This document shows, piece after piece, positions 28,242 through 54,962 of a DNA stretch of 64,000 bases; the first letter of the stretch is position 1, and each line of letters starts with the position of its first letter. This DNA comes from Deltaproteobacteria bacterium (GTDB lineage: Bacteria > Myxococcota_A > Polyangia > Fen-1088): assembly GCA_033763315.1 (NCBI GenBank), contig JANRKS010000034.1:224001-288000 (forward strand), written 5' to 3'. The position numbers were made by a program, and so were the translations under genes. The notes below the pieces were generated by a model. That model did no database searches. It saw only the letters and a program-made list of their open reading frames with translations, and had not been told where the DNA came from.

Positions 28242-28412
28242 ACGCTTTTTGACCGCGTGCCCGGTGGCTATGGTCAACAAATGTTGTTTCAGAAAAGATT
28301 GACCCGCGGGATGTACGCGAAGGTCTAAAGCATCCCGGCATTGTGCGGTCCTGGCACACGCTTTGGTTAAGCGTGTTTCCGTGCCGGCCGATGTGCCTCG
28401 CGCTCTGAGTCG

Positions 28413-29804
28413 TCAGCGCACGTTCTGCCTCACGATAGGATCGTGTTTTTTGTTGCCGGGTTTGCCGCTGAGCGCGGCTGTTTTTAGATTCACGATGTTC
28501 TTGAACACATAGGCGCTGCCCCACTTTGGCTCGGGCGTTTGCGTGTCCCACTGCAGGTCTACGCTCTGCAGCTGTAGCCCATCAATAGATTCGAACACAA
28601 AGCCGTGCGTGGCGCGCTTGTCTGGCTTGTTTTCAGGCAGCATGCGCACGTAGACGTTGCTTATCTTGATGTCGCTAAGAGGTCGATCTGCGTGTCCTGC
28701 CACCACTGAGGTTCCCCGGGCCGAGCCTTGGGCGCCATCAATTGTGATGTGCTCAATCTTGCCGAGGGGGGATGTTGGTTCGCGACGCTTCAGCACAAAC
28801 TTCATGAGTTCGGCGCTGCCCCACCAGTTCCAGTGCCGTCGGTTCGTCTCGAAAGTGATGTTGCTGAACCGCACATCGCTGACGGTGCCACCGTCTTGCA
28901 CGTTGATGCCAATCACCTTGTTCGAGTCGCGAACAACGATGTTTGAGAACACCACGTGCGAAATGTTGGCGTGCGTTTCAGTGCCTATCATCATGGGCGT
29001 GGATGATGAACCCAAGATGCTGTTGGTCACCAAGATATTGTTGACTGGGTTCGCGGGCGCAGATTCATCCTCGAACGCAACCGACTTGATGCAGATCGCA
29101 TCGTCCGCCGTTATCACCGTTGAATCCGAGATGACAACGTTTGAAGACGAAACAATGTCAATGCCATCAGAATTGATGCCTTTTTCCAGGTCGGAAAGCA
29201 CCGTGACGGCGTGAATCTTCACGTCGCTGCAATCTTGCAAACGTACATTCCAGTAGGGGGCGTTCTTGACGGTCACTTGCTCAAAGCGAATGTTGTGGCT
29301 GTCTTGGAGTAAGAAAAGGTACTTCTGTACCTCTCCCGTTCGATAATATCGCTTCATCTCGACGCCTGCCGATTCGGCAAGCTTCTGTTCTTCCGCGATC
29401 TCCACGTCGGGGCGGCGCACGGGTTCGTAAGCCCACGTGGCGGCGCCATCGAATGTTCCTCCTCCCGTTACGGCCACGTTCTCCACGCCCTTGGCGTTAA
29501 CGAGCGCCGGAACATCTTTTGGCCAGTCCGCAGGCGCACGGCTCATCTGGACGATGGCACCATAGTCTAGATGGAGCTCAACGTTGTCTTTGAGCCAGAT
29601 GGGGCCGCTGATGGTGAGACCCGGCGGCACAACGGCCACCCCGCCACCCCGCTTCGCACACGTGTCGATCGCCGCTTGAATGCCGGCGGCGTTGCGCTTC
29701 TCCACACGGCACACACTCTGGGCACGGGCGGACGCAATCCCAGCGCAAGTGATTGCCGCATACAAAACGGCACTACGGGAAACCTGAGTGAACAGTCTCG
29801 GCAT
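28413..29804 (-). CDS. Secreted GH28 pectin-type beta-helix glycoside hydrolase
   Basis: Signal peptide (ARA), IQAAIDTC..GGG, NSDGID, DDAICIK, IGTET, beta-helix repeats. Confidence 0.88.
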   Translation of the reverse strand: MPRLFTQVSRSAVLYAAITCAGIASARAQSVCRVEKRNAAGIQAAIDTCAKRGGGVAVVPPGLTISGPIWLKDNVELHLDYGAIVQMSRAPADWPKDVPALVNAKGVENVAVTGGGTFDGAATWAYEPVRRPDVEIAEEQKLAESAGVEMKRYYRTGEVQKYLFLLQDSHNIRFEQVTVKNAPYWNVRLQDCSDVKIHAVTVLSDLEKGINSDGIDIVSSSNVVISDSTVITADDAICIKSVAFEDESAPANPVNNILVTNSILGSSSTPMMIGTETHANISHVVFSNIVVRDSNKVIGINVQDGGTVSDVRFSNITFETNRRHWNWWGSAELMKFVLKRREPTSPLGKIEHITIDGAQGSARGTSVVAGHADRPLSDIKISNVYVRMLPENKPDKRATHGFVFESIDGLQLQSVDLQWDTQTPEPKWGSAYVFKNIVNLKTAALSGKPGNKKHDPIVRQNVR

Positions 29805-29881
29805 GGTTGGCAGCCATTGTGCCAGATGGTCTTCCGAGAATCAGGGCAAAAGGGGCATCACTTTTAAGAGACGCGACGACT

Positions 29882-29895
29882 AGGACTAAAGACCC
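29882..29895. promoter_or_regulatory. DosR/NarL-type response regulator box upstream of GH28
   Basis: AGGAC-TAAA-GACCC, about 80 bp upstream of the GH28 start. Confidence 0.55.
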
Positions 29896-29913
29896 TCCCT
29901 TTGGTCGGTTGAA

Positions 29914-30255
29914 CTAGTGGTGGGGCCGAGCTTCGAGCACTTGCTGAAGTTTTTGTGAAAGCGCGCTGTTCAACCGCTCAAGTTCGGCAAGTCGGCTCTC
30001 AAGCGCCTCGATCCGCGCTTCAGGTTCGATTAAGTGAATCGCCGGGTCGTGTAAAGAAATTCTAAGCTCTTTTTTCCATCGAAAGAGGAGCGTAACGGGA
30101 ATGTCGTAACGCCGGCCTATCTCTGAGATGCTCTTGTACTGCGCGAAGCCTTGAACGAGGATGTGTCTCTTTTGATCGTTCGTAAGACGCCGTCGTCGAC
30201 CAGGGATAAGCGGAGGGATGTTCACTTCGTCATTAGACAACGTCGAAAATCTCAT
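29914..30255 (-). CDS. Solo transposase OrfA-like HTH protein (IS3/IS66 TnpA-like HTH plus coiled coil)
   Basis: RRRRLTNDQKRHIL...SISEIGRRYDIPVTLLFRWKK, then the zipper RIEALESRLAELERLNSAL. AAGGAAG SD before ATG 30255. No DDE OrfB follows. Confidence 0.7.
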   Translation of the reverse strand: MRFSTLSNDEVNIPPLIPGRRRRLTNDQKRHILVQGFAQYKSISEIGRRYDIPVTLLFRWKKELRISLHDPAIHLIEPEARIEALESRLAELERLNSALSQKLQQVLEARPHH

Positions 30256-30319
30256 AAGTTCTTCCTTACACGACGCAGGCCACTCTTTCATGCTCTACGA
30301 CGTGCCTTGCATGAAAGCT

Positions 30320-30333
30320 GGGACCTTAGTCCC
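30320..30333. promoter_or_regulatory. DosR-type box with perfect inverted arms upstream of the HTH gene
   Basis: GGGAC-CTTA-GTCCC, 65 bp upstream of ATG 30255. Confidence 0.65.
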
Positions 30334-30394
30334 GCGTCGTCGAGGCCAATCAGCCATCTCGAGGTCCTTTAAAGGTGTGAGTTCGCGATGAGAT

Positions 30395-33271
30395 TCATGC
30401 ATGAAGCGGGATCCGTACGGTCAGGCGAGTGCCGCCTGCGGGCCCCGGCTGCAAGTCGAACGTGCCCCCCACAAGTTCGGCGCGCGCGCGCATGCCACCG
30501 ACACCTAACCCTCGCGGCGATCCCTCGCGGCTTGGACGGTTTCTGGGCAACCCAATGCCGTCATCTTGCACAATGAGCGTCACAACCGCGTCAAACTCAA
30601 GCGTGACCTCAACATGTGTTGCCTTTGCGTGCTTGATGACATTGGTCACGGCCTCTCGACATAAGTAGAAGATTTGCGTCGCAACGATGGCGGGTAAGAT
30701 GGCCGTTTGCCCTGATGTTGCAAAGCTGAGCTGAACGTCGCCTGCCTGCGTGATCCTTTGCAAGCGCTGTTGAATGTCTGATGAAAGGTCAGCCGCGTTT
30801 ACAGTGCCGGCGCGCAAACCCCAAATGGCGCTGCGCATGTCCGCCATGCCATCGATCACCAGATCTGCGGCCCGCGCTAGGTGTTCCCGTGCCTGGCCTG
30901 CATTCTTGTCCAACCATAAGCCGGCCGCATCGACGTGCATCTTCACGCCGGTAAGATCTTGTTCAATGCTGTCGTGAATGTCGTGCGCGATCCGCGTGCG
31001 GTCCCTCTGCAGAGCTCGTTGCAACCGCAGTTCGCGACGACGACGCGTAAGTATGCCGACGGCTCCCATTGCCACAAACGTCAGCGCCGCGGCAAGCACG
31101 AACCACTTGCGCAGGTATACAGGCGGCAGCAAGACGATGCTCGTTGCCGCCTGCACCTGCAGGTCAGGACGATCGACGTTATAGGCTGCAACCTCGAAGG
31201 TGTAGCTTCCCGCCCTCAGGCGGGAATACGCGGCGTCTGTGCGAAGGCCCTGCTCAAGCCATGTTTCGTTCCACCCCTTGAGTCGAGTCCGGTAGCGAAG
31301 GCGGGAGGCGTTCCACAACGTCGGTGCTCGGTACGACACAGATAAGGCGCCGTCACCGACAGCCATGGGGCGTTGAGTGTCGTTCTGCGCGACTCCATTG
31401 AGCGTCAATGTATCAATGTGCACAGATAAAGGGGGAGGGGCTTGCACCAGTGATGGCGGCCTTACGCCCGCGAGTCCGGAAAGCATCGAAAACCACAAGC
31501 GGCCTTGGGGGTCCTTGCTCGCGGGGGGAGAGAATTGGCGAGTCGCTTGAGAATTTCGCAGACCGTCGGTGGTCTGGTAGCTGATCGAAGTGACCGTGGC
31601 CGCCCATCCATCCAGAACCGATTCAGCCTGCGCCCGCGAGATGCGAAAGATGCCGTGCATGCTGCTGAACCACAGCCAGCCATCGCCATCCTCCAAAACC
31701 GCGTGCAGATGATCATCCCACAAACCTTGCTTTGTGGTGATGCGTTCCATGCGGCCTTGCTTGATGCGTATCAGTCCGGCCCCGTCCGATGCAGCCCAAA
31801 TGGTACCGGAGGCGTCTTCGTGCAGACTCAACGGGTGGGCTTGAGAAGGCAGCGTGAACGTCGAGACGCCGCCGCCCAGCAGCCTAATGATGGTTCCGTC
31901 GCTGCGGGCGGCCCACACGGCCCGATCGCGAGCCTGCAAAACGTCGAATACGAGATTCTTGGTGTTCTTGGTGCCTTGGTAGATCATGTCGAAGCGGTGG
32001 CCACTCTTTTGACCTACGCCTCCGTCTTGGAGTCCCATTAGAAGTGACCCGTCCACCGTCGTGCGCAGCACATGAATGCCAAAGTCGGCTGGTTGATTTT
32101 CAAGTTGTACGGGCGAGAAACGTTTGGCTTTCAGATCAAGCCTGACCAATCGGTTTATTAGGCCCGCCGCCCAGACGTCTCCGTCGGGGGTTATCGCGAC
32201 GGTTCGCAAATCGATGTGCTTGAGGCCGTTTGTCGCATCAAAATTGTACACCCGGCCTTCTCTGTAGCTGGTCAAGCCATAGCCTTGCGTAAACCACACG
32301 GTGCCGTCACTTGTGGTTGCTACCGAGAATGCAAAATCGCCATTGACGCCCTCCGCGCGCCCAAGATTGAACAAAGGCGGATCCAATCGAACCTGGGCGA
32401 GTCCTTGCACGGTTCCCGCCCATAGACCCTGTGCATCGCGCATCATCGACGTGACGATCGGGTAGGGCATCCCTTCTCTCATGGCTAGCTCGTGGGTTGC
32501 GTCGCCGCCGGAGAGTGGAAAAGCGCGAATGCCGTGATCCTGTGCTAGCCAAAGAAGCTGGTGGTCTTCGTCCACAAGGATGTGATAGGTGGCGATCGTC
32601 GGATCGCCGTAGCTTTGTGATGCAATCGTCCCATCGGGCGTGAATGAATATAAGCTGCTCGTCTTCGCGGGAGACGTAACGACGGCGAACGCGCCTCCCG
32701 TGGCTGACACCGCGACAAATCTGGTGGGCTCATTGAGGATGGTGCGTGCAACTCCGTCCCAGCGAATGAGACCTTGGTCAGTCGCCAGCCACACAATCTT
32801 GTTGTGTCTGGCAACCTGGTGGGCCGACGCCTTGAATAGCAAACGCGGGGAACTTGGCGGCGCCCATGCGAACGTTCCGTCTGCAGTGGCGATGAAGACG
32901 TCGTCTCCCTCTGCACCGACCAATGCCTTTGCACCAGGCATTGTGAAAGTTTGAACGGCGTGGGCCCGCACTTGGATTAGTGTGCCTTCCTCGCACAACG
33001 CGGATACGTAGCCGTTGGGGGCGGCAATGAGTTCTGTGCGGCAGTCGTGACGAAAGCACCACCAGTCAAAACCGTTGAAGCGGCACAATCCCATGTCGCC
33101 CGACGACCACAAAAACCCATCGCCGTCGATGGACGTAGCCACCACACCCGTTTGTTTCTCGTGCACCTTCACTTCACCCAGCAATGGCGCGTTGGCCAGC
33201 GCCGGCGGCGAAAGAAGCAATAGCGAACACACCAAACCTAATCCGACGCAGCCCAGCGCCTTCGCGTGCAT
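30395..33271 (-). CDS. Membrane sensor histidine kinase with periplasmic beta-propeller/Y_Y_Y domain and HisKA_3
   Basis: Signal peptide, two-component-propeller repeats (GLWAGT..GL, GTIWAASDGAGL), Y_Y_Y (YRTRLKG..W...YSRLRAGSYTFEV), TM, RIAHDIHD, EAVTNVIKHA, DDGIG. Confidence 0.92.
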   Translation of the reverse strand: MHAKALGCVGLGLVCSLLLLSPPALANAPLLGEVKVHEKQTGVVATSIDGDGFLWSSGDMGLCRFNGFDWWCFRHDCRTELIAAPNGYVSALCEEGTLIQVRAHAVQTFTMPGAKALVGAEGDDVFIATADGTFAWAPPSSPRLLFKASAHQVARHNKIVWLATDQGLIRWDGVARTILNEPTRFVAVSATGGAFAVVTSPAKTSSLYSFTPDGTIASQSYGDPTIATYHILVDEDHQLLWLAQDHGIRAFPLSGGDATHELAMREGMPYPIVTSMMRDAQGLWAGTVQGLAQVRLDPPLFNLGRAEGVNGDFAFSVATTSDGTVWFTQGYGLTSYREGRVYNFDATNGLKHIDLRTVAITPDGDVWAAGLINRLVRLDLKAKRFSPVQLENQPADFGIHVLRTTVDGSLLMGLQDGGVGQKSGHRFDMIYQGTKNTKNLVFDVLQARDRAVWAARSDGTIIRLLGGGVSTFTLPSQAHPLSLHEDASGTIWAASDGAGLIRIKQGRMERITTKQGLWDDHLHAVLEDGDGWLWFSSMHGIFRISRAQAESVLDGWAATVTSISYQTTDGLRNSQATRQFSPPASKDPQGRLWFSMLSGLAGVRPPSLVQAPPPLSVHIDTLTLNGVAQNDTQRPMAVGDGALSVSYRAPTLWNASRLRYRTRLKGWNETWLEQGLRTDAAYSRLRAGSYTFEVAAYNVDRPDLQVQAATSIVLLPPVYLRKWFVLAAALTFVAMGAVGILTRRRRELRLQRALQRDRTRIAHDIHDSIEQDLTGVKMHVDAAGLWLDKNAGQAREHLARAADLVIDGMADMRSAIWGLRAGTVNAADLSSDIQQRLQRITQAGDVQLSFATSGQTAILPAIVATQIFYLCREAVTNVIKHAKATHVEVTLEFDAVVTLIVQDDGIGLPRNRPSREGSPRGLGVGGMRARAELVGGTFDLQPGPAGGTRLTVRIPLHA

Positions 33272-33276
33272 GCGCC

Positions 33277-33942
33277 TTAGTCCTTGTGGCGCTGGGGAAG
33301 TTCGATGATGCCCCGTTGCAGGGCGATCGTCACGGCGTGCGTGCGATCGGTGGCGCCTAGCTTTACGAACACGTTCGACATGTGGTTCTTCACTGTCTTC
33401 TCAGCGAGGCCGAGCGAACTTGCGATGTGCGCGTTCGAGAGGCCCTCGGACACGCCTTCGAGCACCTCTATCTCCCTCGCCGTTAGGTCAGATGAAGAGG
33501 CGCGCGCGCCCAAGCTCGCCACGGCACCTGCTGACAAATACTTTCCGCCGCGCGCCACACATCGGATCGCTTCTAACAGCACCACAGCGGGCGCCGACTT
33601 AAGAACGTAACCTCGCGCTCCAGCCGCCAAGCACGTTTCGATCGCTTTGTCGCCGTCTGCGCTCGATAACATCAAGACGCGCACGTCTGGAAAGCGTTCG
33701 CCCAACACCTGCACCCCGCTCAGACCGTCCATCTGTGGCAGTCGTAGATCCATCAACACGATCTGCGGATGATGTTGACTCACTGCTTCGAGGCCTTCGC
33801 GCGCTGTGGCAGCCGTTGCCACAATTCTCATATCATCCTGCGATGAGATGATGGCCGACAAGCCATCGCGCACCACAGCGTGATCGTCGACTAGCAAAAC
33901 GCTTATGCCTTTATCGTTCGCGGAACTCTTGTCGTCACCCAT
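33277..33942 (-). CDS. NarL/LuxR-family response regulator with DosR-like recognition helix
   Basis: VDDH, LMDLRLP, GYVLK receiver; LTAREIEVL...LAEKTVKNHMSNVFVKLG HTH. Confidence 0.95.
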   Translation of the reverse strand: MGDDKSSANDKGISVLLVDDHAVVRDGLSAIISSQDDMRIVATAATAREGLEAVSQHHPQIVLMDLRLPQMDGLSGVQVLGERFPDVRVLMLSSADGDKAIETCLAAGARGYVLKSAPAVVLLEAIRCVARGGKYLSAGAVASLGARASSSDLTAREIEVLEGVSEGLSNAHIASSLGLAEKTVKNHMSNVFVKLGATDRTHAVTIALQRGIIELPQRHKD

Positions 33943-34024
33943 GGGACAGTCTCCTCACCTCTGCGGTTGCGTTCGCTTGACAGACACTCGGAATGTGAGC
34001 CGGAAAGTCTTGTCGTGCTCGTTT

Positions 34025-34045
34025 GGGGCCAAAGACCTATGTCCT
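34025..34045. promoter_or_regulatory. Overlapping DosR-type boxes between the divergent response regulator and lipoprotein operon
   Basis: GGGGC-CAAA-GACCT (34025-34038) and AAGAC-CTAT-GTCCT (34032-34045). Confidence 0.55.
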
Positions 34046-34156
34046 TTCTGTTGCGAGCGAAGCCATATAAAGGGAACTCCTCTGAGCCGCACGAACTGCA
34101 TGCCAATCAGGAATGCGCTTCGGTCACGGCAAGAATCTTAGCGAAAGAAGTGCCCA

Positions 34157-35116
34157 ATGCGCCACAACGTATACCTGATCTTATCTCTGCTGACCGCGAC
34201 GTTATGTATGGGGAACTGCTCCAGCAGCTCGTCAAGCGATGATGGTGCAGGTGGCGACGGCGGTGGGTCTGCAAGCGGAGGTAAAGGCGGCGGAGGCGGT
34301 GGCAAAGGTGGCTCGGGTGGCAAAGGTGGCTCGGCTGGCACTGCTGCAGGCGGTGCAGGTGGTTCGTCTTCCACTGGCGGCAGTGCAGCGGGCAGTGGCG
34401 GTATGGCTGCAGGCGGTACCGCAGGATCGTCGATGGGCGGTGCGGCTGGCTCGTCGCCGATGCAGGGTGGCAGTGCCGGCACGCCGCCTGCGATCAGCGG
34501 TGATGGAGTGTTCTTCTCAGGTCGTGAGATGACCGTGTCAAAGCTCGTGGCTGGCGATGCGATGCCAGGCTACTTCTACGCAAGCCCCAGCGCTCCCGCG
34601 GGCGTCGTGGTGGAGACTGTGAGCGACCCCGCGTTGCCCGAAGGAACGAAGTACGCCGTTACGGCCACTTTAGATCCCTCCTTGGAAGGCAATTTCATTT
34701 TCGGATGGAACTTTAGGCAAAACACAGCGGATTTAAAGTGGAACTATTTCGATGCCAGCGCCTATGCCGGCCTTTCATTTTGGGTCAAGAGCGAGACCAC
34801 CGCGGCGGCTTTGGTGTTCACGGGTTACTTTCAGTACGACGCAAGGAACTTCACGCCCGCGTCGGAATACGGCGGTACTTGCAGCACCGAACCGTGCGCG
34901 GCTTTCACCGAATACCCCGCCGTGGTGGCACGCAAAGCGACGTGGACTCGCGTCGTACAAAAGTTCTCGTATCAAACGGCTGGTGAACCAATGCTCTCCG
35001 CGCTTGGCCGGATCGATCTGCTTCAACTTCGATTGGGCACCGGTGGACCGGCTGCAAAGGTCTTCGTTACTGGTCTACAATTGCTGAAGGAAGCTGACCT
35101 TCCGCCGTCCCCATAA
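34157..35116 (+). CDS. Gly-linker lipoprotein with carbohydrate-binding (CBM11-like) jelly-roll domain
   Basis: LCMGN-C lipobox, about 90-aa G/S/A linker, FDASAYAGLSFWVKS, GGTC...C, WTRVVQKFS. Confidence 0.6.
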   Translation: MRHNVYLILSLLTATLCMGNCSSSSSSDDGAGGDGGGSASGGKGGGGGGKGGSGGKGGSAGTAAGGAGGSSSTGGSAAGSGGMAAGGTAGSSMGGAAGSSPMQGGSAGTPPAISGDGVFFSGREMTVSKLVAGDAMPGYFYASPSAPAGVVVETVSDPALPEGTKYAVTATLDPSLEGNFIFGWNFRQNTADLKWNYFDASAYAGLSFWVKSETTAAALVFTGYFQYDARNFTPASEYGGTCSTEPCAAFTEYPAVVARKATWTRVVQKFSYQTAGEPMLSALGRIDLLQLRLGTGGPAAKVFVTGLQLLKEADLPPSP

Positions 35117-35169
35117 GCCCAACGCGCTCGACCTGTTGGTTGTTGGTCCGTTAGCAAGAGGAGAAAGTA

Positions 35170-36219
35170 ATGCAGGCAGGGTGCGCTGTTTATGTCGCTG
35201 TTTGCTTTGCCTTTGTTGCCTGTTCCTCTGCACAGCAGAGCACAACGAACGGTGAGAATGAAGCCGGGTCTTCGCAAGCGGGCGCGGGTGGAGCGGGGCA
35301 AGGTGGTGAAGGCGACACCGCAGGCGCAGCAGGCCTACCGAACGATACAAACGGCGGGCGTGGTGGCTCTGCTGCCGGTGGTGCGCCCGCTGGTTCGGGC
35401 GGTGCCGCCGCTGGGGGCGGCGCTGCTGCAAATGCGGGCGGCACCGCAGGAAAGGCCGCCACCGGGGGCACTTCGGGTGCTCCCGGGAGCGACTGCGGTA
35501 AGCTTGCCGACTGCGACACTTTCGAAAGCTACACGCCTGGAAGCCGCCCTGGTGGCCCTTGGACCGGATTCGAGACAACCAACGGGAGCGTCACCGTCGA
35601 CGAAACACGCGCATTCAGGGGAAGCAAACGTTCCGTCAAGATCTCGATCAACCCCGCCGCCGAGATGACCGCTCGCATGCGGCATGCAGGCACTGGTCTG
35701 CTGCCCGCGGACGAGATCTTCATGCGTATGATGGTATGGATGGATGCCCCGCCGCGTGGTTCGGGCCACTGGAACTGGATGTGGGGCGAAGGCACCGTGA
35801 CTCAGAAGAGTGGCGGCAAATTGATTAATGCATTTATCGCGTCGGGCGGCAGTCTGAGCGGCGGCACCTGGATGCTCTACGGCGGATCTGCCAACAACGG
35901 GTTTCAAGATTGCTTCGCACAAGCCAGTACAGCCTTTCCTGTAGGGCGCTGGGTTTGTTACGAAGCGCACTTCAACGGAAAATCAAACTCAGCCGAAACG
36001 TGGATCGACGGAAAGCGAGACGAGCTGCTCAGCGTTGAGGATGCGCAACCATTAACGGGGCAGTGCGTGCCGGGATTCAACTACACAAACAACTTGTGGT
36101 ACATCCCGCGCATCGAGAAGGCGTTCTTCGGATTCAAGGTCTATCACACGCTCAACGCTTCAGCGACCGCCTGGATTGACGACGTTGCGATTTCCACCAC
36201 GCGCATCGGCTGCCCGTAA
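35170..36219 (+). CDS. Gly-linker lipoprotein with Cip1-like/lyase-like beta-sandwich domain
   Basis: FAFVA-C lipobox, G/A linker, CDTFES, VTVDETRAFRG..SVKI, FMRMMVWMD, PVGRWVCYE, WIDDVAISTTRIGC. AGGAG SD. Confidence 0.65.
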   Translation: MQAGCAVYVAVCFAFVACSSAQQSTTNGENEAGSSQAGAGGAGQGGEGDTAGAAGLPNDTNGGRGGSAAGGAPAGSGGAAAGGGAAANAGGTAGKAATGGTSGAPGSDCGKLADCDTFESYTPGSRPGGPWTGFETTNGSVTVDETRAFRGSKRSVKISINPAAEMTARMRHAGTGLLPADEIFMRMMVWMDAPPRGSGHWNWMWGEGTVTQKSGGKLINAFIASGGSLSGGTWMLYGGSANNGFQDCFAQASTAFPVGRWVCYEAHFNGKSNSAETWIDGKRDELLSVEDAQPLTGQCVPGFNYTNNLWYIPRIEKAFFGFKVYHTLNASATAWIDDVAISTTRIGCP

Positions 36220-36283
36220 AGTCAGATTCACGCGCTCGTAAGGCTTTGCGGTCAGTCAATCACGAGTACAATTTGAGGGCTGC

Positions 36284-37156
36284 ATGTCCCCCAATTCGCG
36301 TCCGAAGATCAAATGTCTGGCGGCGTTCATTCACTTTGGCCTGCTTTCATTCTTCATTGCGTGTTCAACAGGTGCCGGCAAAGGGAGAACGGCCGCTCGA
36401 AACGAGCTTGAGCAACCGACGGGTGGGATGTTGACAGGCGTTGTGCCCTGCTCACGGCCGCCAGGGTTCTGGCCGTTCGCAACGGACGGAGCCGTATCTC
36501 TTACGTATGATGACGCTTTGAAAAGTCCTGTGCGCCATGCGTTGCCCGCGCTTGATGCCCACGGCTTTAAGGCTACGTTCTTCCTGACGACCGGTAAGCG
36601 TTGGGAGCCAGCGCTTTGGAAACCCTTGGCGCGAAACGGGCACGAACTCGCCTCCCATTCCGTCACCCACAACTCGACCCTTACGCGAGCGGCGATGGAG
36701 CAAGAGGTTGTGACCAGCCTGGCATCCATTGCGGCCTTGGAGGCAACACAGCCTCACTTTAGCTTCGCGTATCCGAATGGGCAGCCAAACGGCGCAGATG
36801 GCTCTTACGAACCCGTCGTTCTGCGACACGCGCTGGCGGCCCGCGGGCTCAACGGCGCCTCTTTGGCGTTGGGGACGCCTGTTGATTACGGAAACATCCC
36901 CGCGCGCATCTTGGGCGCCAGCGATGATCTAGTGGCCATCATCCACGAGACGTTGGAGCGACACCAGTGGACCGTGTTTGTGGTGCATGGCATTGAGGAC
37001 GATCTCTATCTCAACATTCCGAAAAAGAAGCACGACGAGCTCGTGGCGCTGTTGGCGCGGAAGAATGTTTGGGTCGCTCCGTTTATCACTGTCGCGGACT
37101 ACTTAAAGAGATGCCAGGCGCGCGTCAGCGAAGTGGCGGGCGATGCATCTGGATGA
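36284..37156 (+). CDS. Polysaccharide deacetylase (CE4/NodB) lipoprotein
   Basis: FFIA-C lipobox; SLTYDDA, ATFFL, HELASHSVTH, FAYPNG, VVHG. Confidence 0.88.
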   Translation: MSPNSRPKIKCLAAFIHFGLLSFFIACSTGAGKGRTAARNELEQPTGGMLTGVVPCSRPPGFWPFATDGAVSLTYDDALKSPVRHALPALDAHGFKATFFLTTGKRWEPALWKPLARNGHELASHSVTHNSTLTRAAMEQEVVTSLASIAALEATQPHFSFAYPNGQPNGADGSYEPVVLRHALAARGLNGASLALGTPVDYGNIPARILGASDDLVAIIHETLERHQWTVFVVHGIEDDLYLNIPKKKHDELVALLARKNVWVAPFITVADYLKRCQARVSEVAGDASG

Positions 37157-37455
37157 ACTGTATCGCGGGTGCAGAATCCCCCGTGGCTGTAAGGCTAACG
37201 TCGATGACGTAATACCCCAACCTGTTCGCGACGCTCGGGATCTGAGCGTAACTCTCTCTTGTCCTCCGAGGCTCCACCATTGACAGTCACGTGATGTGTC
37301 TGTTGCATGATCTCGGTTGTTGTTCGTCGCCGCACCAACTGCATGATGGCGTCGTACTCGAGATAATTCCCAGCCGTGTAGCTGTGGTAGATCATGAGGT
37401 CCGGATACCAAGGATTTGGCATGGGGCCGATGGCGGCAAGAGCGACGAACGGCAT
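37125..37455 (-). pseudogene. Possible frameshifted gene remnant
   Basis: Protein-like frame MPFVALAAIGPMPNPWYPDLMIYHSY...EDKR continues in another frame (ESYAQIPSVANRLGYYVIDVSLTATGDSAPAIQFIQMHRPPLR*) across an AGAGAGAG tract at about 37252-37260. No family recognised. Confidence 0.3.
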
Positions 37456-37489
37456 TGAGTAAGGATAACTGAGTGCGTTCACGAAACGA

Positions 37490-37603
37490 AGGACCAAAGA
37501 CCTCGACGGCAAGGTGCCGAAAGGCCCATGTCGCCTAGGTCGTTCACGGGCCCACGAAACGTCGACCCGGGTCATGTGTCGACGGGCCTAGGCCTTGGGT
37601 CCC
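37490..37603. promoter_or_regulatory. Cluster of three DosR-type boxes upstream of the ECF sigma gene
   Basis: AGGAC-CAAA-GACCT (37490), GTGCC-GAAA-GGCCC (37514), AGGCC-TTGG-GTCCC (37590). Confidence 0.55.
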
Positions 37604-37717
37604 TATCGTTGAGCAAACGCGACGCCTAACATGTGTTGAAGGGCGCCTATGCGAACGCATTGGGGACCATGGAGGCATTCCGATGTCATCGCCCGACGTC
37701 ATAAACGTTGAGATGCC

Positions 37718-38431
37718 ATGATACGACCGCTCAATGCTCGTCGCTCGTCGCCATCCATTTGCAGTATGGAGATGGAGAAAGCGGCAGTGGCCACCAGACT
37801 TGATTTTCTCGTGCGCGCCGTGCGCGCCGGGGACTCCCGACGTTTCAGCGAAGTGGTTTCGCTGCTGCAAACGGGAGTGCGAAGCATTTTGGCGGTGATG
37901 ATCCCCGACACAAGCCTCGTCCCCGACCTTGCGCACGAAACCTTCGTTGTGGCCTACATGAAGCTAGACGAGTATCAAGAAGGCACTGACTTTCCGGCTT
38001 GGGTAAAGGCCATAGCCCGCAACCTTGCCAGCAATGAGCGGCGTCGGTGGATTCGGGAGCGGCGCTTTTCTTCACGCTACGCCACCGCCATCGAGAACGG
38101 CATCGTCGGCCCCATGTTCGATGAGCTGACAGAGAAACTAGAGCTTGAACAACAGACACAACTTTTGGCGTCGTTGAATGAGTGTTTAGCGGAGCTTTCG
38201 CCAGGGGCGAGGAAGACGGTCGAGCTGTTCTATTTGAAAGGCCAGTCCGTGGCCGATATCGCCGCCAGCAGCGGACGCTCAACAGGGGCCACCAAGTCCC
38301 AGTTGTTTCGCGCCCGTGCGGCTTTGGCCGAATGCTTAGCGGCGAAAGGATGGTTACGACTGGTCAAAAACGGACGGGTGCAAACCCCAAAGGTGGTTCA
38401 AGGTCGGAACGGGCACTTGAAGGTCTATTGA
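37718..38431 (+). CDS. ECF sigma-70 factor with no adjacent anti-sigma
   Basis: Region 2 DLAHETFVVAY...FPAWVKAIARN; region 4 LNECLAELS...SVADIA...ATKSQLFRAR. Start may be 37766. Confidence 0.9.
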   Translation: MIRPLNARRSSPSICSMEMEKAAVATRLDFLVRAVRAGDSRRFSEVVSLLQTGVRSILAVMIPDTSLVPDLAHETFVVAYMKLDEYQEGTDFPAWVKAIARNLASNERRRWIRERRFSSRYATAIENGIVGPMFDELTEKLELEQQTQLLASLNECLAELSPGARKTVELFYLKGQSVADIAASSGRSTGATKSQLFRARAALAECLAAKGWLRLVKNGRVQTPKVVQGRNGHLKVY

Positions 38432-38510
38432 TCAAGGCCTGCGAGGGTTCCCTATATGAAGAGAACCATCTTTGATTGTCTGAACAACACTATCGCCAGG
38501 TTGGGACATT

Positions 38511-39932
38511 TCAGCTTCCTAAAAGATCGGAATCGAGATTGCCCGTTGAGTATTTAGGGTTGCCGAACTTTGTGGCGGCCATGATGCCCATGGCGTGCTG
38601 AAACGTGACGAAGAGATTGTTGTGAGGCACATTTTTCGCCGTAAAAAGCCGCCCCGTGCGGAACATCTTGCCCCCCGCGCCGCTGGCTACAACCCATGGA
38701 TAGTTATCGCGCGAGTGGATGTTTCCCTTGCCAAGCTCATTGACCCAAACAACCGTCGTGTGATCGAACAGGTTGCCGTCGCCTTCGGGCACTGCCTTCA
38801 ATCGCTCTATGAGCCCAGCGAACTGCTGCGCGTACCAAGTGTTGATCTTCACCAGGTTCGCTCGCGCGGTGGCGTCCGAGTCTCCCGCGTGAGAAATGTC
38901 GTGATGCTGCTCAGCGATGTTTAGCCAAGGGAATGTGAGATAACTCTCAGCAAACGACCATTGCAGGCTTGCCACGCGGGTGAGATCACATGCAAGCGCC
39001 ATCGTGAGCAGGTCCATTTGCAGCTTCCCTACGGCTTCGTAGTTCTTGGCCGATCGAAAATCAATCGTGGGCGGTGTGTTTGGCTTTTTGCATGCGTTGG
39101 GCATCGATCCCTTTGGATCGCCACCCGGCTGCAGTTGTCGCTCAATGCCCCGCAAGGAATCTAGGTGCGCTTCTATCTTCCGGCGATCGGCAGCACCCAG
39201 CCGTTGGCTCAGCGTCTGGTAGTCAGGAAGCACCAAGTCAAGCACCGATTTGCGCTGTGCCCTTAGAACATCTGCCGCTTGCCGTGCCGCGTCCGCCGTC
39301 GGATCGTTCGCTGTGGTCAATTCCCCAAACACGCGGCGAAACATGGCCGCTGGATCACTTTCGGGTGGCAGCCGCTTGAAGGAACCCTCGTAACACATCG
39401 CGGCCGCCATGTGTAAGACGGCCACGGGAAGCGACACCACGCCAAACTCAAGTGAACGGAATTTTGTGGTTGTTCCAATCGTCTTTGCGATCTCCTGATC
39501 AATCGAGGGACCGCCTGCCGATCCATCCACGAGATGCCCATTGGCGCCGGTGCCGCCGGGGCCCACAACAAGGTCAGTGCAGGTCAATAAATGTCCCATG
39601 GCAACGTCGTGCGGGTTGTCGCCGGGACCCGAATTTCCCGATAGGCCGTGCACACCTTGCAGCAGCAAGAGTTCATTCTTGTGCGCCTCGAGCGGTGACA
39701 GGATGGGGCCCATCTTGAAGGATGAATCAGGGAGCCAGTCTTTTGCCACGGTGCCGTTGGCGCTGAAGAACAGAACGAAGCGACGAGGAAAACCGCCGAC
39801 CGCATGCATGGGATCAAGCGTCGCCGCGTAAGCCTTGCGTGACGGCGCCATCGCATCGAGAAATGGCAGCGCAATGGCGATGCCGCCTGCGCCTCGAAGC
39901 ACCGTGCGGCGGTCAAGAATGTGGCGGCTCAT
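38511..39932 (-). CDS. DUF1552-family Tat-exported protein
   Basis: LDRRTVLRGAGGIAIALPFLDAM, SIDQEIA, SVLD, ALACDLTRVA, HHDISH, HNNLF. AAGGAG SD; ATGA overlap with the upstream gene. Confidence 0.9.
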   Translation of the reverse strand: MSRHILDRRTVLRGAGGIAIALPFLDAMAPSRKAYAATLDPMHAVGGFPRRFVLFFSANGTVAKDWLPDSSFKMGPILSPLEAHKNELLLLQGVHGLSGNSGPGDNPHDVAMGHLLTCTDLVVGPGGTGANGHLVDGSAGGPSIDQEIAKTIGTTTKFRSLEFGVVSLPVAVLHMAAAMCYEGSFKRLPPESDPAAMFRRVFGELTTANDPTADAARQAADVLRAQRKSVLDLVLPDYQTLSQRLGAADRRKIEAHLDSLRGIERQLQPGGDPKGSMPNACKKPNTPPTIDFRSAKNYEAVGKLQMDLLTMALACDLTRVASLQWSFAESYLTFPWLNIAEQHHDISHAGDSDATARANLVKINTWYAQQFAGLIERLKAVPEGDGNLFDHTTVVWVNELGKGNIHSRDNYPWVVASGAGGKMFRTGRLFTAKNVPHNNLFVTFQHAMGIMAATKFGNPKYSTGNLDSDLLGS

Positions 39933-41596
39933 AGTTTGTCTCCTTCGTTTTGAATTCGTCGGTATCGAAACGCATCTGTGTTTACCGTTCCTGCGATCAG
40001 CTCGCGCAGGCTGCCGTGGCCCGCCGCCTGCGCCTTTGCGAGCCGATCCAAATCGCATGTATCGGCTTGCGTTTCCGCGCGTCCCATGGCGAACCGGAAC
40101 CACTGCGAAACCGCGCAAGCACTCACCTGAGCGCTGGTCCCCAACTTGCGCCCCAAAGCGAGCGCGCCCACGAACGGTCCGTCGACGTCGGTTTGGACGA
40201 GCTCTCCGCTCGCATCCACAGGCCGCCCGCCCTCCAGGCTGCGCCAATGGCCTACGCCGTCATAGTTCTCGAATGCCAGGCCCAATGGATCCATCAGCTG
40301 GTGGCAAGGACGACAGGCCGGATCAGTTGCGTGCTGTGTGAAGCGCTCCCGCGTGGTGAGCTTCGGATCAAGATCGGGCGGTTTGATGTTCAAATTGGCG
40401 GGCGGCGCGGGTGGGTGTGTACACAAGAGTGCCTCACGAACGAACTTGCCCCGCGCCACGGGTGAGCTTTGATTCGTTTTTGCATGCACCGAAAGCAACC
40501 CAGCCTGTGTGAGCAACCCACCTCGCTGTGCGGGATTCAGCGAAACCTTCTGGAAAGCATCGCCCGTGGGGCCGCCTTCGAGGCCATAGAACTGCGCGAG
40601 CCGCTTATTAACGAATGTGTATGGCGCCGTGAGCAGCGTGCCTATCGTTCCGTCGCCCTTCCAGATCGCCTCGGTCACGAATTGGTCTTGTTCTTCGCGC
40701 AAGAGGGGCAAGAGGTCGGACGTGAAAGCGGGGTAAACGGCGGTGTCCTTTTCAACCAGGTCAAGCCGGCTGACACCAAGCCATTGCGCAAAGAAGTGAT
40801 GGACGGTTGCCTGCGCGCGCGGATGAGCGAGCATGCGATCCACTTGCTGCCCAAGGCCAGCCGGCGTCGCCAGTTTGCCCTGTTCAGCTGCCTTGAAGAG
40901 TTCGGCGTCGGGCATGGTGCCCCACAAAAGATAAGACAGCCGAGAGGCCATCTCCCAGTCATCTGGGGCAACCACGCCTTCGCTAACGGTGACGGCACTG
41001 GTCTCGACCCGGTACAAGAAGTGAGGGGACGCCATTAGCGCGTGCAGCAAAAGCTCAAGTGTTTTTGTGTGATCGTTGGTGGCGCGTAAGGTCTTATAGG
41101 CACTGTCAAAACGACCGACTTCCGCCGCGGCCAGCGGTCGACGCCAAACGCGGCGGCCGACTTGTTGAACGAATGAGGTGCCACACGTTGCCTCTGCGGT
41201 CTTGGAGGTGTCGCAGCTAAAGAACGTGGACAGCTTTTTCATCGCGCGTGCCGCGATTTGCTCCGCGGCGGTGAAATACGATTCGGCCAGCAGCGGGCTT
41301 GTGCCAAATGATTCGGCCGCGTTGTCGAAACCGTACGGCGCTTCTTCTGTGGGGAAACCGGCAGCAGGTTTCGTTGTGTCGCCGAACAGATCCTCCAGCG
41401 TGCGATCGAACTCGAAGCGCGTCAGCCTGCGCAGCGGTGAGCTTGCTGGCATTGGGCTTTTGCACGTGACGGCCTGACCGCCGCCGTTCGACGACGAGGA
41501 GGAGGGGCGGTCGGGCGCGCCAGGGTTCTGACCGATTGCCCCGGTGCAGTTGACGCAAGCAGCGAACAGAACGACGAGCGCGACATGCTTAGCCAT
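39929..41596 (-). CDS. DUF1587/1595/1592/1588/1585 lipoprotein with CxxCH haem c motif
   Basis: LFAA-C lipobox, LRRLT, SPHFLYRVE, ASRLSYLLW, RGGLLTQ, SPVARG, TTRER, CRPCH (40301-40315), ENYDGVG.WR. Confidence 0.9.
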   Translation of the reverse strand: MAKHVALVVLFAACVNCTGAIGQNPGAPDRPSSSSSNGGGQAVTCKSPMPASSPLRRLTRFEFDRTLEDLFGDTTKPAAGFPTEEAPYGFDNAAESFGTSPLLAESYFTAAEQIAARAMKKLSTFFSCDTSKTAEATCGTSFVQQVGRRVWRRPLAAAEVGRFDSAYKTLRATNDHTKTLELLLHALMASPHFLYRVETSAVTVSEGVVAPDDWEMASRLSYLLWGTMPDAELFKAAEQGKLATPAGLGQQVDRMLAHPRAQATVHHFFAQWLGVSRLDLVEKDTAVYPAFTSDLLPLLREEQDQFVTEAIWKGDGTIGTLLTAPYTFVNKRLAQFYGLEGGPTGDAFQKVSLNPAQRGGLLTQAGLLSVHAKTNQSSPVARGKFVREALLCTHPPAPPANLNIKPPDLDPKLTTRERFTQHATDPACRPCHQLMDPLGLAFENYDGVGHWRSLEGGRPVDASGELVQTDVDGPFVGALALGRKLGTSAQVSACAVSQWFRFAMGRAETQADTCDLDRLAKAQAAGHGSLRELIAGTVNTDAFRYRRIQNEGDKL

Positions 41597-41825
41597 AAAA
41601 CCAAATGTCCGACGCACGCCCCAGGTTTCGTTCTTTTCCTTCCAGCAGAGGTTACACAGCAACGACTACGGCCCGGATGATGACAATGGCCAACTTGCGC
41701 GCAACAATTTCCCCGCAAAGCGATGGGTGTGCCTCGAATGCAAGTCCCCATCTCCGTGATGTCGGAGCATGGCATTAACCACTGGAAGTATGGTCAGCAG
41801 TGGCTCACGGCGGGCGCCAGGAAGC

Positions 41826-42740
41826 TTACGTCGGCCTGATCTTCTGCCGAAACTGCTCTGGCGTGACTCCCACCTGGCGACGGAAGAACTTGACGAAGTT
41901 CGTGGCCTCAGTGAATCCCAACTGTTCAGACACGCGGGCGGCAGGCCATGCCGTGTGCGCGATGAGCCGTTTGGCTTCTAATGCCACACGTTCGTCGATC
42001 ACCGATTTCGGTGTTTTGCCGAGAATTTGCAGACACGCACGCGACAAAGTCTTTTGTGAACAACCCAACGTGCGGGCGTAATCGGCCACCGCACGAGTCT
42101 TGGCCAGCTTTTCTTCAAGCGCCAAGCGAAGCTGCCGGACCACCATCAGGTGTGGGTGATCTTGCGCCGGCCACGCGGGCCCCTCGTTCTTCGCGCTGCC
42201 AGCAAGCGCAAACAGCAGTGCGTGCAGCAAGTGGCCGATGACACGCTCGCCGCGTTGGGAGCTATCATAGGCGTTGTATTGTTGATTGACCGCAGAAAAC
42301 AAGCTCTCAAGATTTCCGCGCTCTTCGCGCGCAGGCGTGAGTTTGACTGGCCAATCCTCGACATTCAAAGGCGCGTCGGCCGATGCGACGTCATTGTGCT
42401 TGATTGCCTGTGGGAACAAGAAGCGTTCCTTGAATATGACGACGATGCCATCGATACGATCACGTCCATCGAATATGTGAACTTGGCCCGGGCTTACTTT
42501 GATGATGTCGCCGGGTGCGCAGGCATAGTCGACGAAGTCGACCGTGTGCTTGCCCGCACCCTTCGTTACCAGAAGAAAAAAGTGGAAGGTGATGCGCGTG
42601 GGCAGCGTTAGATCATGGTCGAGCTGTCGCTGGTGAAGGTCGTGAAGCCAGAACGACTCTACAGCCAACGTCGGATGGCGAGGCTGCTTGAAGGCCACAT
42701 CCTTGATGATCGCTTGAACGGCAGTGTTTTGAGCTTTCAT
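41826..42740 (-). CDS. AraC-family regulator with cupin sensor domain
   Basis: GAGKHTVDF..Y...PGQVH; VADYARTLG, EAKRLIAH, LGFTEATNFVKFFRR. Confidence 0.92.
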   Translation of the reverse strand: MKAQNTAVQAIIKDVAFKQPRHPTLAVESFWLHDLHQRQLDHDLTLPTRITFHFFLLVTKGAGKHTVDFVDYACAPGDIIKVSPGQVHIFDGRDRIDGIVVIFKERFLFPQAIKHNDVASADAPLNVEDWPVKLTPAREERGNLESLFSAVNQQYNAYDSSQRGERVIGHLLHALLFALAGSAKNEGPAWPAQDHPHLMVVRQLRLALEEKLAKTRAVADYARTLGCSQKTLSRACLQILGKTPKSVIDERVALEAKRLIAHTAWPAARVSEQLGFTEATNFVKFFRRQVGVTPEQFRQKIRPT

Positions 42741-42842
42741 GAGGTTCACAGACACCAAGGACCTGCTGCAGGAACGTGCCTCGGCGGCACGCGTGTGCAT
42801 GAAGGTATGCCCTACATTTGGCCGAAATCCTCGCCTTTATTT

Positions 42843-46877: not shown

Positions 46878-47004
46878 GCGACGACTATGCCCCAATGAGA
46901 TCCGTCCGAAGTAAAATGCGTGCGCGTGTCGCGCGTTGGCACACAACGCTGCAAGACACGCGACCAAGCGGCGCTGCGTGTCTTGCCTGGCGTGCGCGAG
47001 ACCG

Positions 47005-51774: not shown

Positions 51775-53169
51775 CTAGCCCATAAAGCCTGCCAGGCCGC
51801 CACGACCTGCGTCTTGCACACCCCACGTCTCCTCGGGCAGCCCCATGGCGTTCAGGATGCTGACAAGCAGCCGGTTGTGCTCAACACCTAAGCCCTTGCG
51901 TGGTTCCCCGGCGCGGATGTATTGCCCCGTTTTTACGCCAAGGTTTTTGCCACCGATGGTCATAAACTGCATCGGGTAGCCGGCATGATCCTGCCCGTGT
52001 TCCGAGCCCACCACCACAAGCGTGTTGTCCAACATCGTTCCGCCCGTCTCCGGGATCGAGCTTAGCCGCCTGCACAACGCCGCCACTTGTTCTGACATCC
52101 AGATCTTCGCACGTTTATAGTCTTCGACGCTGGGATCGTTGTGAGATAAAGCGTGCCAACCTTGGGGCAGGTTGATGGGTGCAAAATTTGATGTCGCATC
52201 GTGATCATCTCGCCCCCAATTCTTGAACTCCACCACGCGGGTGAGATCACAAGCCAGCGCTGTGACCGTGATATCGATCATCATATTCATCACCTTCGGA
52301 ACGTCATGCGTGATGTGGTTTGTCCAAACAACGTTGGGCTCAAGTGCAAGGGGCCCGCAAGCTTGGCCTGATCCAGCCGTAGCAAAACCAGCAGAGAGCT
52401 GTTTTTCAAGTGACCTGCACGTTTCAGCCTGCGCCTCGGCGCGGGCCCGATCGGCCGCACCCAGCCGCTTCGCAAACGCCGTGGCTTCCTTGGCGCAGTA
52501 GTCGAGCACGCTTTTGCGGTTTGCCAGCCTTGCCATCACTTGCGGATCGGGTTGCGTCTTCGCTGTGAAGAGGCCATCGAAAAGCCGCGTGTATAGTGCA
52601 TACGGATTTCGCTCGATCGATCCGCGGACCTGGTTCCCGGTGTAATCGTGAACATGCGTTTGGTCGGGCTGCACGCCAAGTCCAAGCAGGGGACAACGGG
52701 GTGTTGCGAGTTTTCCGATTTTCTCGCTCATGTGGAAATCAATCGAGGCATTGCGCGCTTTGCCCCAGGACGGGTGAGGCGGCACTTTTTCGGCCTCGGC
52801 AGAGCCCGTCCAAAGCTGGATTGAGTAGTTGTTGTGGCTACTCGTGTCCTTCATGGGGGCGTTCTTCTGTTCAAGGTTCTGTATCACGACCATTTGATCG
52901 CGAAACATTTCGAGCGGCTTGAGCATGTGACCAAACACGCCGGTGGCGTAGGAGGTGCCGGCCTTGTAGTACCAAGACTCAGGAATGCTTTGCCCACCGC
53001 CTGGCAGGCCATTGGGGTGCTCGAAGAGAATCACCCGGCGTGGAGCCCCACCTTCGGCTGCATGCGCCTGCGGCAGGAAAGAACGGCCGAAAGGCCGCAG
53101 CGTGGGCGCCGCACCAGCGCCAATCAAGAGGGTTTGTAAGACGCTTCGTCGCGTGGCTGATTTCGTCAT
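51775..53169 (-). CDS. DUF1552-family Tat-exported protein (second, divergent paralogue)
   Basis: ATRRSVLQ Tat signal, PNG, SID, SVLD, ALACDLTRV, WHALSH, HNRLLVSI. GGAGG SD; TGATG coupling. Confidence 0.85.
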   Translation of the reverse strand: MTKSATRRSVLQTLLIGAGAAPTLRPFGRSFLPQAHAAEGGAPRRVILFEHPNGLPGGGQSIPESWYYKAGTSYATGVFGHMLKPLEMFRDQMVVIQNLEQKNAPMKDTSSHNNYSIQLWTGSAEAEKVPPHPSWGKARNASIDFHMSEKIGKLATPRCPLLGLGVQPDQTHVHDYTGNQVRGSIERNPYALYTRLFDGLFTAKTQPDPQVMARLANRKSVLDYCAKEATAFAKRLGAADRARAEAQAETCRSLEKQLSAGFATAGSGQACGPLALEPNVVWTNHITHDVPKVMNMMIDITVTALACDLTRVVEFKNWGRDDHDATSNFAPINLPQGWHALSHNDPSVEDYKRAKIWMSEQVAALCRRLSSIPETGGTMLDNTLVVVGSEHGQDHAGYPMQFMTIGGKNLGVKTGQYIRAGEPRKGLGVEHNRLLVSILNAMGLPEETWGVQDAGRGGLAGFMG

Positions 53170-54932: not shown

Positions 54933-54962
54933 GTCGAAAACCTCTCGTGGCGGGTGAGGTAG

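Follow-up and report, generated by a model that had tools for sequence, protein, structure and literature searches.

DosR-like boxes and a DosR-like recognition helix at a propeller-sensor two-component system in a deltaproteobacterial genome

The 64-kb stretch of DNA analyzed here, hereafter the window, comes from contig JANRKS010000034.1 of a Deltaproteobacteria bacterium. At positions 28413-38431 it carries a locus centered on a two-component system, composed of a response regulator of the NarL/FixJ type and a sensor histidine kinase with propeller domains of the kind found in the hybrid two-component systems (HTCS) of Bacteroides. The recognition helix of the regulator, LAEKTVKN, is that of DosR from Mycobacterium tuberculosis, and six sites resembling the DosR box are found in the gaps between the genes of the locus. 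The regulator is probably a NarL-type protein with DosR-like DNA specificity which, served by an HTCS-type propeller kinase, controls its own operon, a GH28 gene, lipoprotein and CE4 deacetylase genes, and the gene of an extracytoplasmic function (ECF) sigma factor. We consider it rather likely that this regulator, possibly with a paralogue encoded on another contig of the genome (C11), binds these boxes and controls the local genes. For a case built on computation only, the assignment of the boxes to the regulator has good support.

The locus comprises two divergent gene sets (table 1). The minus-strand set runs from the regulator through the kinase and a helix-turn-helix (HTH) open reading frame (ORF) to the GH28 gene; the plus-strand set, 34157-38431, encodes a 319-aa probable lipoprotein, a 349-aa Cip1-like lipoprotein, a CE4 deacetylase, and the ECF sigma factor. 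Four gaps of the locus are at least 100 bp long (109, 103, 214, and 561 bp), and each carries at least one of the six boxes. At one mismatch or fewer, no box was found in the short gaps or in the flanking gaps 28281-28412 and 38432-38510. Among the sites named in the original prediction, those at 29882, 30320 (with perfect arms), and 37490 match RGGAC-N4-GWCCY exactly and those at 34025, 34032, and 37590 deviate from it at one position, but the site at 37514 (GTGCCGAAAGGCCC) has at least three mismatches and was rejected. The positions that it gave them relative to the GH28, HTH, regulator/lipoprotein, and ECF genes are correct by coordinates. Box 2, one of four GGGAC-N4-GTCCC sites in the genome, sits 29-42 bp before the ATG of the HTH ORF and 62 bp past the stop codon of the kinase gene; it is not among the terminator-like sites returned by a terminator scan. 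The overlapping Boxes 3a and 3b are in the divergent promoter region, at distances of 83-103 bp from the ATG of the regulator gene and 112-132 bp from that of the lipoprotein gene, and Box 3b retains the GAC-N4-GTC core. The orientation of the box before the GH28 gene is opposite to that before the ECF gene, an arrangement more consistent with a dimer site than with a promoter element. A scan for sigma-70-type promoters, with one found versus 3.9 expected, was uninformative for this organism.

Motif scans were performed with custom scripts. The chance figures for the window and the genome are not true P-values, since the sites themselves served to define the pattern: the strict pattern RGGAC-N4-GWCCY occurs at three positions (four strand matches) in the whole window, where shuffled sequence gives 0.47 matches, with four reached in 2 of 100 shuffles; it has 29 positions in the 7.63 Mb of the genome, and 29 sites placed at random would leave at least three in any 8-kb span with P = 0.011. 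Eight of the 11 distinct one-mismatch positions in the window fall within the locus (binomial 3.8e-5), and the 987 bp of locus gaps hold six sites at one mismatch or fewer versus 0.15 expected from the intergenic rate of the genome. The symmetric core GGAC-YWWR-GWCC is found at 11 positions in the genome, nine of them (82%) intergenic, including six outside the locus. By comparison, 48 arm-permuted patterns, pooled with the box pattern and its mirror included, are 12% intergenic (194/1602), and no pattern without relation to the box passes 40%. Few pentamers of like composition are as rare as the arms GGGAC, GGACC, and GACCC, and this explains the rarity of the box. However, the density of single arms rises by a factor of just 1.2-1.4 in intergenic DNA, a rise that does not explain the intergenic bias of the box.

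As claimed at the outset, the helix LAEKTVKN is present in the translation of the regulator, within LGLAEKTVKNHMSN, in a protein composed of Response_reg and GerE domains. The DosR literature gives residues 175-188 as FLAEKTVKNYVSRL (PMC5861037), Lys179, Lys182, and Asn183 as base contacts (PMC4082495), and TTSGGGACTWWAGTCCCSAA as the consensus (PMC2275270), and bears out the equivalence of helix and GGGAC-N4-GTCCC-type site stated in the original prediction. The helix of our regulator equals DosR residues 176-183, the three base-contacting residues included. In the genome, [EQD]KTVK[NT] is encoded by two of the 39,265 ORFs of at least 70 aa, the window regulator and C11:13132-13782. We then scanned the 7.63 Mb for the 14-base published DosR core, GGGACTWWAGTCCC, defined a priori, at two mismatches or fewer. 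This yielded 16 sites (two at one mismatch and 14 at two), six of them intergenic by crude gene calls. The two LAEKTVKN genes have three of these sites within 4.1 kb, where 0.037 would be expected (Poisson P = 8e-6; the 4.1-kb margin was picked after seeing the data, and a 10-kb margin gives about 1e-4 by hand arithmetic).

The regulator has a receiver domain and a C-terminal GerE HTH, as expected for the NarL/FixJ type, and matches VraR, DevR, ChrA, and NarL in the PDB. No NCBIfam equivalog cut-off is reached. The receiver holds the usual acidic pocket, Asp, Ser, and Lys; its stretches LLVDDH, LMDLRLP, MLSS, and VLKS are invariant in an alignment of five sequences, and the regulator-kinase pair looks functional. 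We rejected the idea that the regulator is an orthologue of DosR. Its kinase and its targets differ, and in the whole-protein PDB search VraR comes first (4.7e-36), three VraR sequences outscoring DevR (3c3w, 5e-31). In a search with just the C-terminal domain, DosR chains occupy the 13th and lower places among 21.

The C11 paralogue is 77% identical to the window regulator and its helix is identical. A strict box, GGGACTTTAGACCT (C11:13835), is located 53-66 bp before its ATG in a 145-bp gap, divergent to a GH42 gene; a strict site would occur in this gap by chance with a probability of 5.5e-4. The regulator gene is followed by a GH2 gene, and DUF1552/DUF1592 genes and a propeller kinase lie within the same 12 kb, the kinase being about 8 kb from the regulator. 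Aligning the upstream regions of the two regulators revealed nothing in common beyond the box. Given that helix and box are the same in both systems, it is probable that they have sites in common or cross-regulate them, among these the copy of Box 2 at C2:17996. There, at C2:17996-18009 (L001 7997-8010), a 17-mer identical to that of Box 2 is found between a DUF1592-DUF1552 operon, which begins 54 bp away, and a divergent 1078-aa ORF without Pfam family, 111 bp away; this site is a candidate distant member of the regulon. We did not count its DUF1592 adjacency as evidence, as it is unsurprising in a genome with 120 DUF1592 genes. Two other intergenic sites within two mismatches of the DosR core neighbor ECF sigma genes: C34:297542 (L023 9542), with a GH49-like gene about 1 kb downstream and an ECF gene after it, and C19:104568 (L140 4568), 16 bp before another ECF gene.

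The pairing of helix and box was also compared across phyla, using 159 loci around NarL-family relatives drawn from scans of genome and metagenome contigs and classed by whether or not they encode the EKTVKN helix; some loci come from related organisms and are not fully independent, and base composition differs between the two sets. The 73 loci with the helix (564 kb) contain the box 12 times, in ten loci, versus a mean of 1.66 and a maximum of 6 for 44 permuted controls. In contrast, the 86 loci without the helix (364 kb) contain none (permuted control mean 0.86). The density of boxes near versus far from the regulators of this collection is a weak indicator, with a ratio of 1.7 against 0.2 to 1.4 for controls. 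The pairing seems to be widespread outside mycobacteria. DosR-like palindromes, for example GGGACCAAGGTCCC and GGGACTTTGGTCCC, adjoin EKTVKN regulator genes in Actinomycetota, Betaproteobacteria, and Alphaproteobacteria (loci L031, L062, L065, L067, L070, L078, L080, and L083). The proposed tie between a DosR-like regulator and the boxes passes the a-priori genome scan, the paralogue comparison, and the cross-phylum comparison.

Several observations weigh against this reading. The GTCC of one arm is replaced by GACC in four of the six locus boxes and in the C11 box, so that these are not true palindromes and the real motif may be asymmetric. Three of the locus boxes carry a mismatch. Box 4 is 215 bp from the ECF start and within a doubtful ORF, 37195-37575(-). 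The EKTVKN helix is widespread in NarL-family regulators (e.g., chain 7x1k), and other residues may tune specificity. In the closest orthologues, from two genomes (G014 and G104), the regulators have the helix and 63-66% identity in common with ours and the kinase 39% identity, but these genes are located in other neighborhoods (Fic, MatE, methyltransferase, and FKBP genes). Their contigs, of 16.5 and 5 kb, show no site better than three mismatches, and there is no phylogenetic footprint. Taken together, the two genomes have 13 GGAC-YWWR-GWCC sites, most of them under long ORFs and fewer than for the reversed-pattern control. The contig collections hold no orthologues, the best matches being 42% identical in genome contigs and 48% in metagenome contigs, and the pair was not found in two genomes of the same genus with these queries. 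The gene calls are codon-based and crude: the caller missed at least the HTH ORF, the DUF1552 gene at 38511, and a gene on C11 that turned one "intergenic" strict match (C11:20063) into a coding one, which we discounted as chance. Finally, at one mismatch the pattern shows no enrichment over the whole window (17 matches vs. 20.4 expected). This last result, the lack of boxes at the orthologous loci, and the fact that the pattern was derived from the sites themselves would all be expected if DosR-like words had been sought in about 1 kb of intergenic DNA and a pattern then fitted to a chance cluster; by a rough estimate, three 14-mers with ten positions in common can occur by chance in 1 kb. 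Yet the scan with the published core is independent of our sites, and neither the box of the C11 paralogue, the intergenic bias relative to permuted controls, nor the contrast of 12 boxes to none across phyla is explained by such fitting, which makes chance a very improbable source of the cluster.

More serious, though still unlikely in our judgment, is the explanation that the boxes are real and chiefly read by the C11 paralogue or another factor, or that 34025/34032 are the sole working sites among decoys. With an identical helix in two regulators, the sequence by itself does not tell which of them reads a given site; neither the best palindrome, 30320, nor its copy at C2:17996 is near the promoter of either regulator, and the boxes in the window regulator's own promoter are the weakest. 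On the other hand, the boxes cluster at the window regulator, the C11 locus has a single intergenic one, and beyond these two regulators no ORF of the genome carries the helix. A different origin could be proposed for 29882 and 30320, which flank the HTH ORF in inverted orientation, agree at 11 of 14 positions (read by eye), and have CGACGAC in common just outside. They could be the terminal inverted repeats of an insertion element in decay that retains only its OrfA-like gene, or binding sites of the protein encoded by this ORF, the other boxes being unrelated look-alikes. The ORF itself is compatible with this: it belongs to the HTH_Tnp_1 family, with weak NCBIfam matches to IS66 TnpA and IS3, and its G+C content at third codon positions is 0.55 versus a typical 0.73. 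However, the family has seven diverged copies in the genome and none of the other six is flanked by boxes, a single one-mismatch site being found beside one of them. The box is also present at C11:13835 and C2:17996 without such a gene, the motif coincides with the site published for a regulator whose helix is identical, and DNA of 60% G+C is generally rich in CGACG-type pentamers (a judgment, uncounted). We regard an origin of either kind as highly unlikely. No transposase ORF accompanies this solitary OrfA-like ORF, and the 109 bp that separate it from the GH28 gene leave no room for one. The label of second-tier regulator given to it in the original prediction is not justified.

Table 1. 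Features of the locus and related genes (window positions, except for propeller kinases on other contigs)
Feature	Position	Strand	Basis and remarks
GH28 glycoside hydrolase, 463 aa, signal-like N-terminus	28413..29804	-	Pfam Glyco_hydro_28 2.6e-18; last gene on the minus-strand side
Box 1, AGGACTAAAGACCC	29882..29895		Exact RGGAC-N4-GWCCY; 78-91 bp 5' of GH28 ATG; 2 mismatches to DosR core
Transposase-OrfA-like HTH ORF, solitary, 125 aa	29914..30291	-	Pfam HTH_Tnp_1 1.1e-7
Box 2, GGGACCTTAGTCCC	30320..30333		Exact; perfect 5-4-5 palindrome; 1 mismatch to DosR core
Sensor histidine kinase, 958 aa: signal sequence, Reg_prop propellers, Y_Y_Y, HisKA_3, HATPase_c	30395..33271	-	Pfam
NarL/FixJ-type response regulator, 221 aa, helix LAEKTVKN	33277..33942	-	Pfam Response_reg 2.9e-24, GerE 1.7e-19
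Boxes 3a, GGGGCCAAAGACCT (34025), and 3b, AAGACCTATGTCCT (34032), overlapping	34025..34045		One mismatch each; divergent promoter region
Probable lipoprotein, 319 aa: signal-like N-terminus with Cys, Gly/Ser/Ala-rich linker, putative C-terminal beta-sandwich	34157..35116	+	Sequence
Lipoprotein, 349 aa, Cip1-like / polysaccharide-lyase-like core	35170..36219	+	Pfam PF21340 7.5e-10; FVAC lipobox-like motif in sequence
CE4-type polysaccharide deacetylase, 290 aa	36284..37156	+	Pfam Polysacc_deac_1 8.7e-17
Box 4, AGGACCAAAGACCT	37490..37503		Exact; 215-228 bp 5' of ECF ATG
Box 5, AGGCCTTGGGTCCC	37590..37603		One mismatch; 115-128 bp 5' of ECF ATG
ECF-type sigma factor, 237 aa	37718..38431	+	Pfam Sigma70_r2, r4_2, Sigma70_ECF
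DUF1592/DUF1552 genes in the window	38511-41662 and 51775-54932
Examples of other propeller kinases	C26:98679-102307, C5:12395-16015, C40:217917-221532

The sensor part of the kinase is of the HTCS kind, as had been proposed: in addition to its Reg_prop and Y_Y_Y domains in Pfam, it matches the HTCS sensor domains 3v9f (7e-14) and 4a2l (4e-13), and its core matches DesK in the PDB. A glycan ligand is plausible from the neighboring genes, because an HTCS-type sensor occurs here with a polygalacturonase-like GH28, a Cip1-like protein, a CE4 deacetylase, a CBM30/CIA30-like lead, and a GH78 enzyme nearby. The genes anticipated in the original prediction are present, namely a pectinase-type GH28, carbohydrate-domain lipoproteins (the one resembling a carbohydrate-binding module, CBM, being a lead only), a deacetylase, and an ECF sigma factor. 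Induction by glycan or pectin, derived from these neighbors, was overstated. Only four of the 25 other propeller-kinase loci of the genome have a clear GH, CE, or Cip1-like neighbor (seven if 3-keto-disaccharide hydrolase and Sde182-like proteins are counted), which counts against a general rule of glycan signals for such kinases; DUF1592 and/or DUF1552 genes are found in 15 of the 25. These figures cover 145 called proteins of at least 150 aa around the 25 kinases, smaller and uncalled genes being left out. The closest paralogue of the kinase, C34:316434-319337 (L024 8434-11337; 44% identical), is without adjacent NarL-type regulator and divergent to a gene encoding a CBM9 / glucose-sorbosone dehydrogenase protein. 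A pair of Cip1-like and CE4 deacetylase genes recurs beside another propeller kinase, and a third Cip1-like gene directly precedes a DUF1592 gene; the coordinates listed for the recurring Cip1-like genes are C2:577686-579736 (L239 13148-15198) and C40:221640-222632 (L256 9724-10716).

Concerning the remaining genes, the top NCBIfam match of the GH28 protein is polygalacturonase PglB (5.7e-54, under the family cut-off), and that of the ECF sigma factor is TIGR02989 (2.1e-30, also under the cut-off). The 319-aa lipoprotein has no Pfam family, even at an E-value of 5. Its C-terminal beta-sandwich may resemble CBM30/CIA30, a lead only, with an ESM Atlas model giving a TM of 0.68 to the CBM30-aligned part. 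The 126-aa ORF 37195-37575(-), without family, has one database relative, from a 34-kb contig, which is near-identical over the first ~105 residues (one substitution) and diverges from about residue 106 in a frameshift-like manner. The ORF is probably not under coding constraint, and this relative indicates that a very close relative of the locus exists in public data. Pfam scans of the 39 called genes of the window and three further ORFs detected no TonB-receptor or SusD family, in keeping with the description of the locus as SusC/D-free. Five kilobases beyond the locus, at 42843-46967, lies the gene of a GH78 alpha-L-rhamnosidase, which together with GH28 fits a rhamnogalacturonan theme. This 1374-aa protein has a C-terminal xylose-isomerase-like barrel and, with an AraC-type regulator (41826-46967 for both), stands beside the DUF1592 operon, upstream of which no box at one mismatch or fewer was found. 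Elsewhere in the window, positions 51775-56868 contain a second ECF sigma gene paired with a FecR-like one, divergent from another DUF1592-DUF1552 operon, and positions 5407-14061 encode a protein of 2884 aa in which GH94 supersandwich and catalytic domains are combined with a glucoamylase-like domain, an architecture typical of cyclic beta-1,2-glucan synthases.

We infer binding itself, its effect (activation or repression), the ligand, and the choice of boxes from these comparisons, and the system might work as follows. The periplasmic double-propeller/Y_Y_Y domain would bind the signal, most likely an oligosaccharide from a pectin-like or acetylated polysaccharide, and the HisKA_3 kinase would then phosphorylate the receiver domain of the regulator. 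The GerE dimer would bind the GGGAC-N4-G(T/A)CCC-like boxes present in every promoter-capable gap of the locus. Binding would set the transcription of the regulator-kinase operon, possibly with read-through into the OrfA-like ORF and GH28. GH28 in its own right, the divergent lipoprotein/Cip1-like/CE4 operon, and the ECF sigma gene are the other proposed targets.

The genome (G000) encodes 28 propeller/HisKA_3 kinases (phmmer E<1e-20), a separate genome search giving 25 matches, and 23 of the 28 best NarL-type regulator matches are within 600 bp of a propeller kinase. Its 120 DUF1592 (PSD4) genes are usually paired with DUF1552. Sixteen of the 28 kinases lie within 8 kb of a DUF1592 gene, whereas 2000 random placements give 5.8 on average and 13 at most. 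A full-text literature search for the two names together, DUF1592 and DUF1552, found no paper. On C26, paralogous regulators with the helices ISESTVKNH and ITHNTVKNH belong to the operons 98679-102307 and 112831-116441, upstream of which are the perfect 5-4-5 palindromes AGGAAGTTGTTCCT and CAGAAGTTGTTCTG, both containing GAAGTTGTTC. Perfect 5-4-5 palindromes are frequent by chance in 350 bp, so that the shared core alone is notable, and it hints at a separate helix/box pair for each paralogue. The locus could then be one instance of a genome-wide organization that replaces the polysaccharide utilization loci of Bacteroidota: about 28 HTCS-type kinases with separate NarL-type regulators and their own helix/box pairs (hints of which would be AEKTVKN with GGGAC-N4-GWCCC and xxNTVKN/ESTVKN with GAAGTTGTTC-type palindromes) would target DUF1592/DUF1552 pairs, with or without carbohydrate-active enzymes. 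These pairs would be an envelope capture or uptake module standing in for SusC/D, and the DosR helix and box would have been recruited for glycan control. We consider this broad scheme decidedly improbable as a whole.

An autoregulated two-component system controlling its neighbors is textbook biology. If the assignment of regulator and boxes is true, the DNA specificity of NarL-family regulators would be readable from the recognition helix across phyla, the target set of a sensor system of an uncultured bacterium would be predictable from sequence alone, and an HTCS-type glycan sensor would work via an ordinary phosphorelay, outside Bacteroidota and without SusC/D. The genome-wide pattern of 28 kinases and 120 DUF1592/DUF1552 pairs of no known function is a likelier source of novelty.

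The system has counterparts in several known ones. With DosR/DevR of M. tuberculosis (1ZLK/3C57) it has in common the Response_reg and GerE domains, the helix LAEKTVKN, a GGGAC-T-WW-A-GTCCC-type box, and the presence of boxes in divergent promoter regions. However, the DosR kinase is cytoplasmic with GAF/haem domains (DosS/DosT type), whereas that of the locus combines a periplasmic propeller/Y_Y_Y part with HisKA_3 and matches DosT/DevS in the ATPase domain alone; DosR targets are hypoxia genes, whereas those predicted here are glycoside hydrolase, lipoprotein, deacetylase, and ECF sigma genes, and most locus boxes have GACC in one arm. The NarL/LiaR/VraR-type systems, commonly autoregulated, are similar in their HisKA_3/HATPase_c core, which here resembles DesK, NarQ, and LiaS, in the regulator, whose best PDB match is VraR, and in the box in its own promoter region. 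Their sensors are of the membrane or intramembrane kind, unlike the large periplasmic propeller domain of the locus, and the VraR helix is TLKTVKT or TIKTVKT instead of AEKTVKN. Like the Bacteroides HTCS (sensors 4a2l/4a2m and 3v9f), the kinase has periplasmic Reg_prop and Y_Y_Y domains, a membrane span, and a kinase core, with carbohydrate-active enzymes encoded alongside. Conversely, HTCS unite kinase, receiver, and AraC-type HTH in one polypeptide and use HisKA, whereas the 958-aa kinase ends at HATPase_c, with neither receiver nor HTH fused to it, and uses HisKA_3 with a separate NarL-type regulator; in contrast to SusC/SusD-type loci, no SusC/SusD-type genes were found among the window proteins scanned. 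BguR also couples a double-propeller and Y_Y_Y sensor to a GerE-type DNA-binding output, and there, too, a motif was predicted in the intergenic region that separates the regulator gene from the first structural gene. BguR, from a different phylum and with a SusC/D pair, no counterpart of which was found among the window proteins scanned, fuses the sensor directly to GerE without phosphorelay, whereas our locus interposes a HisKA_3 kinase and a receiver between the two.

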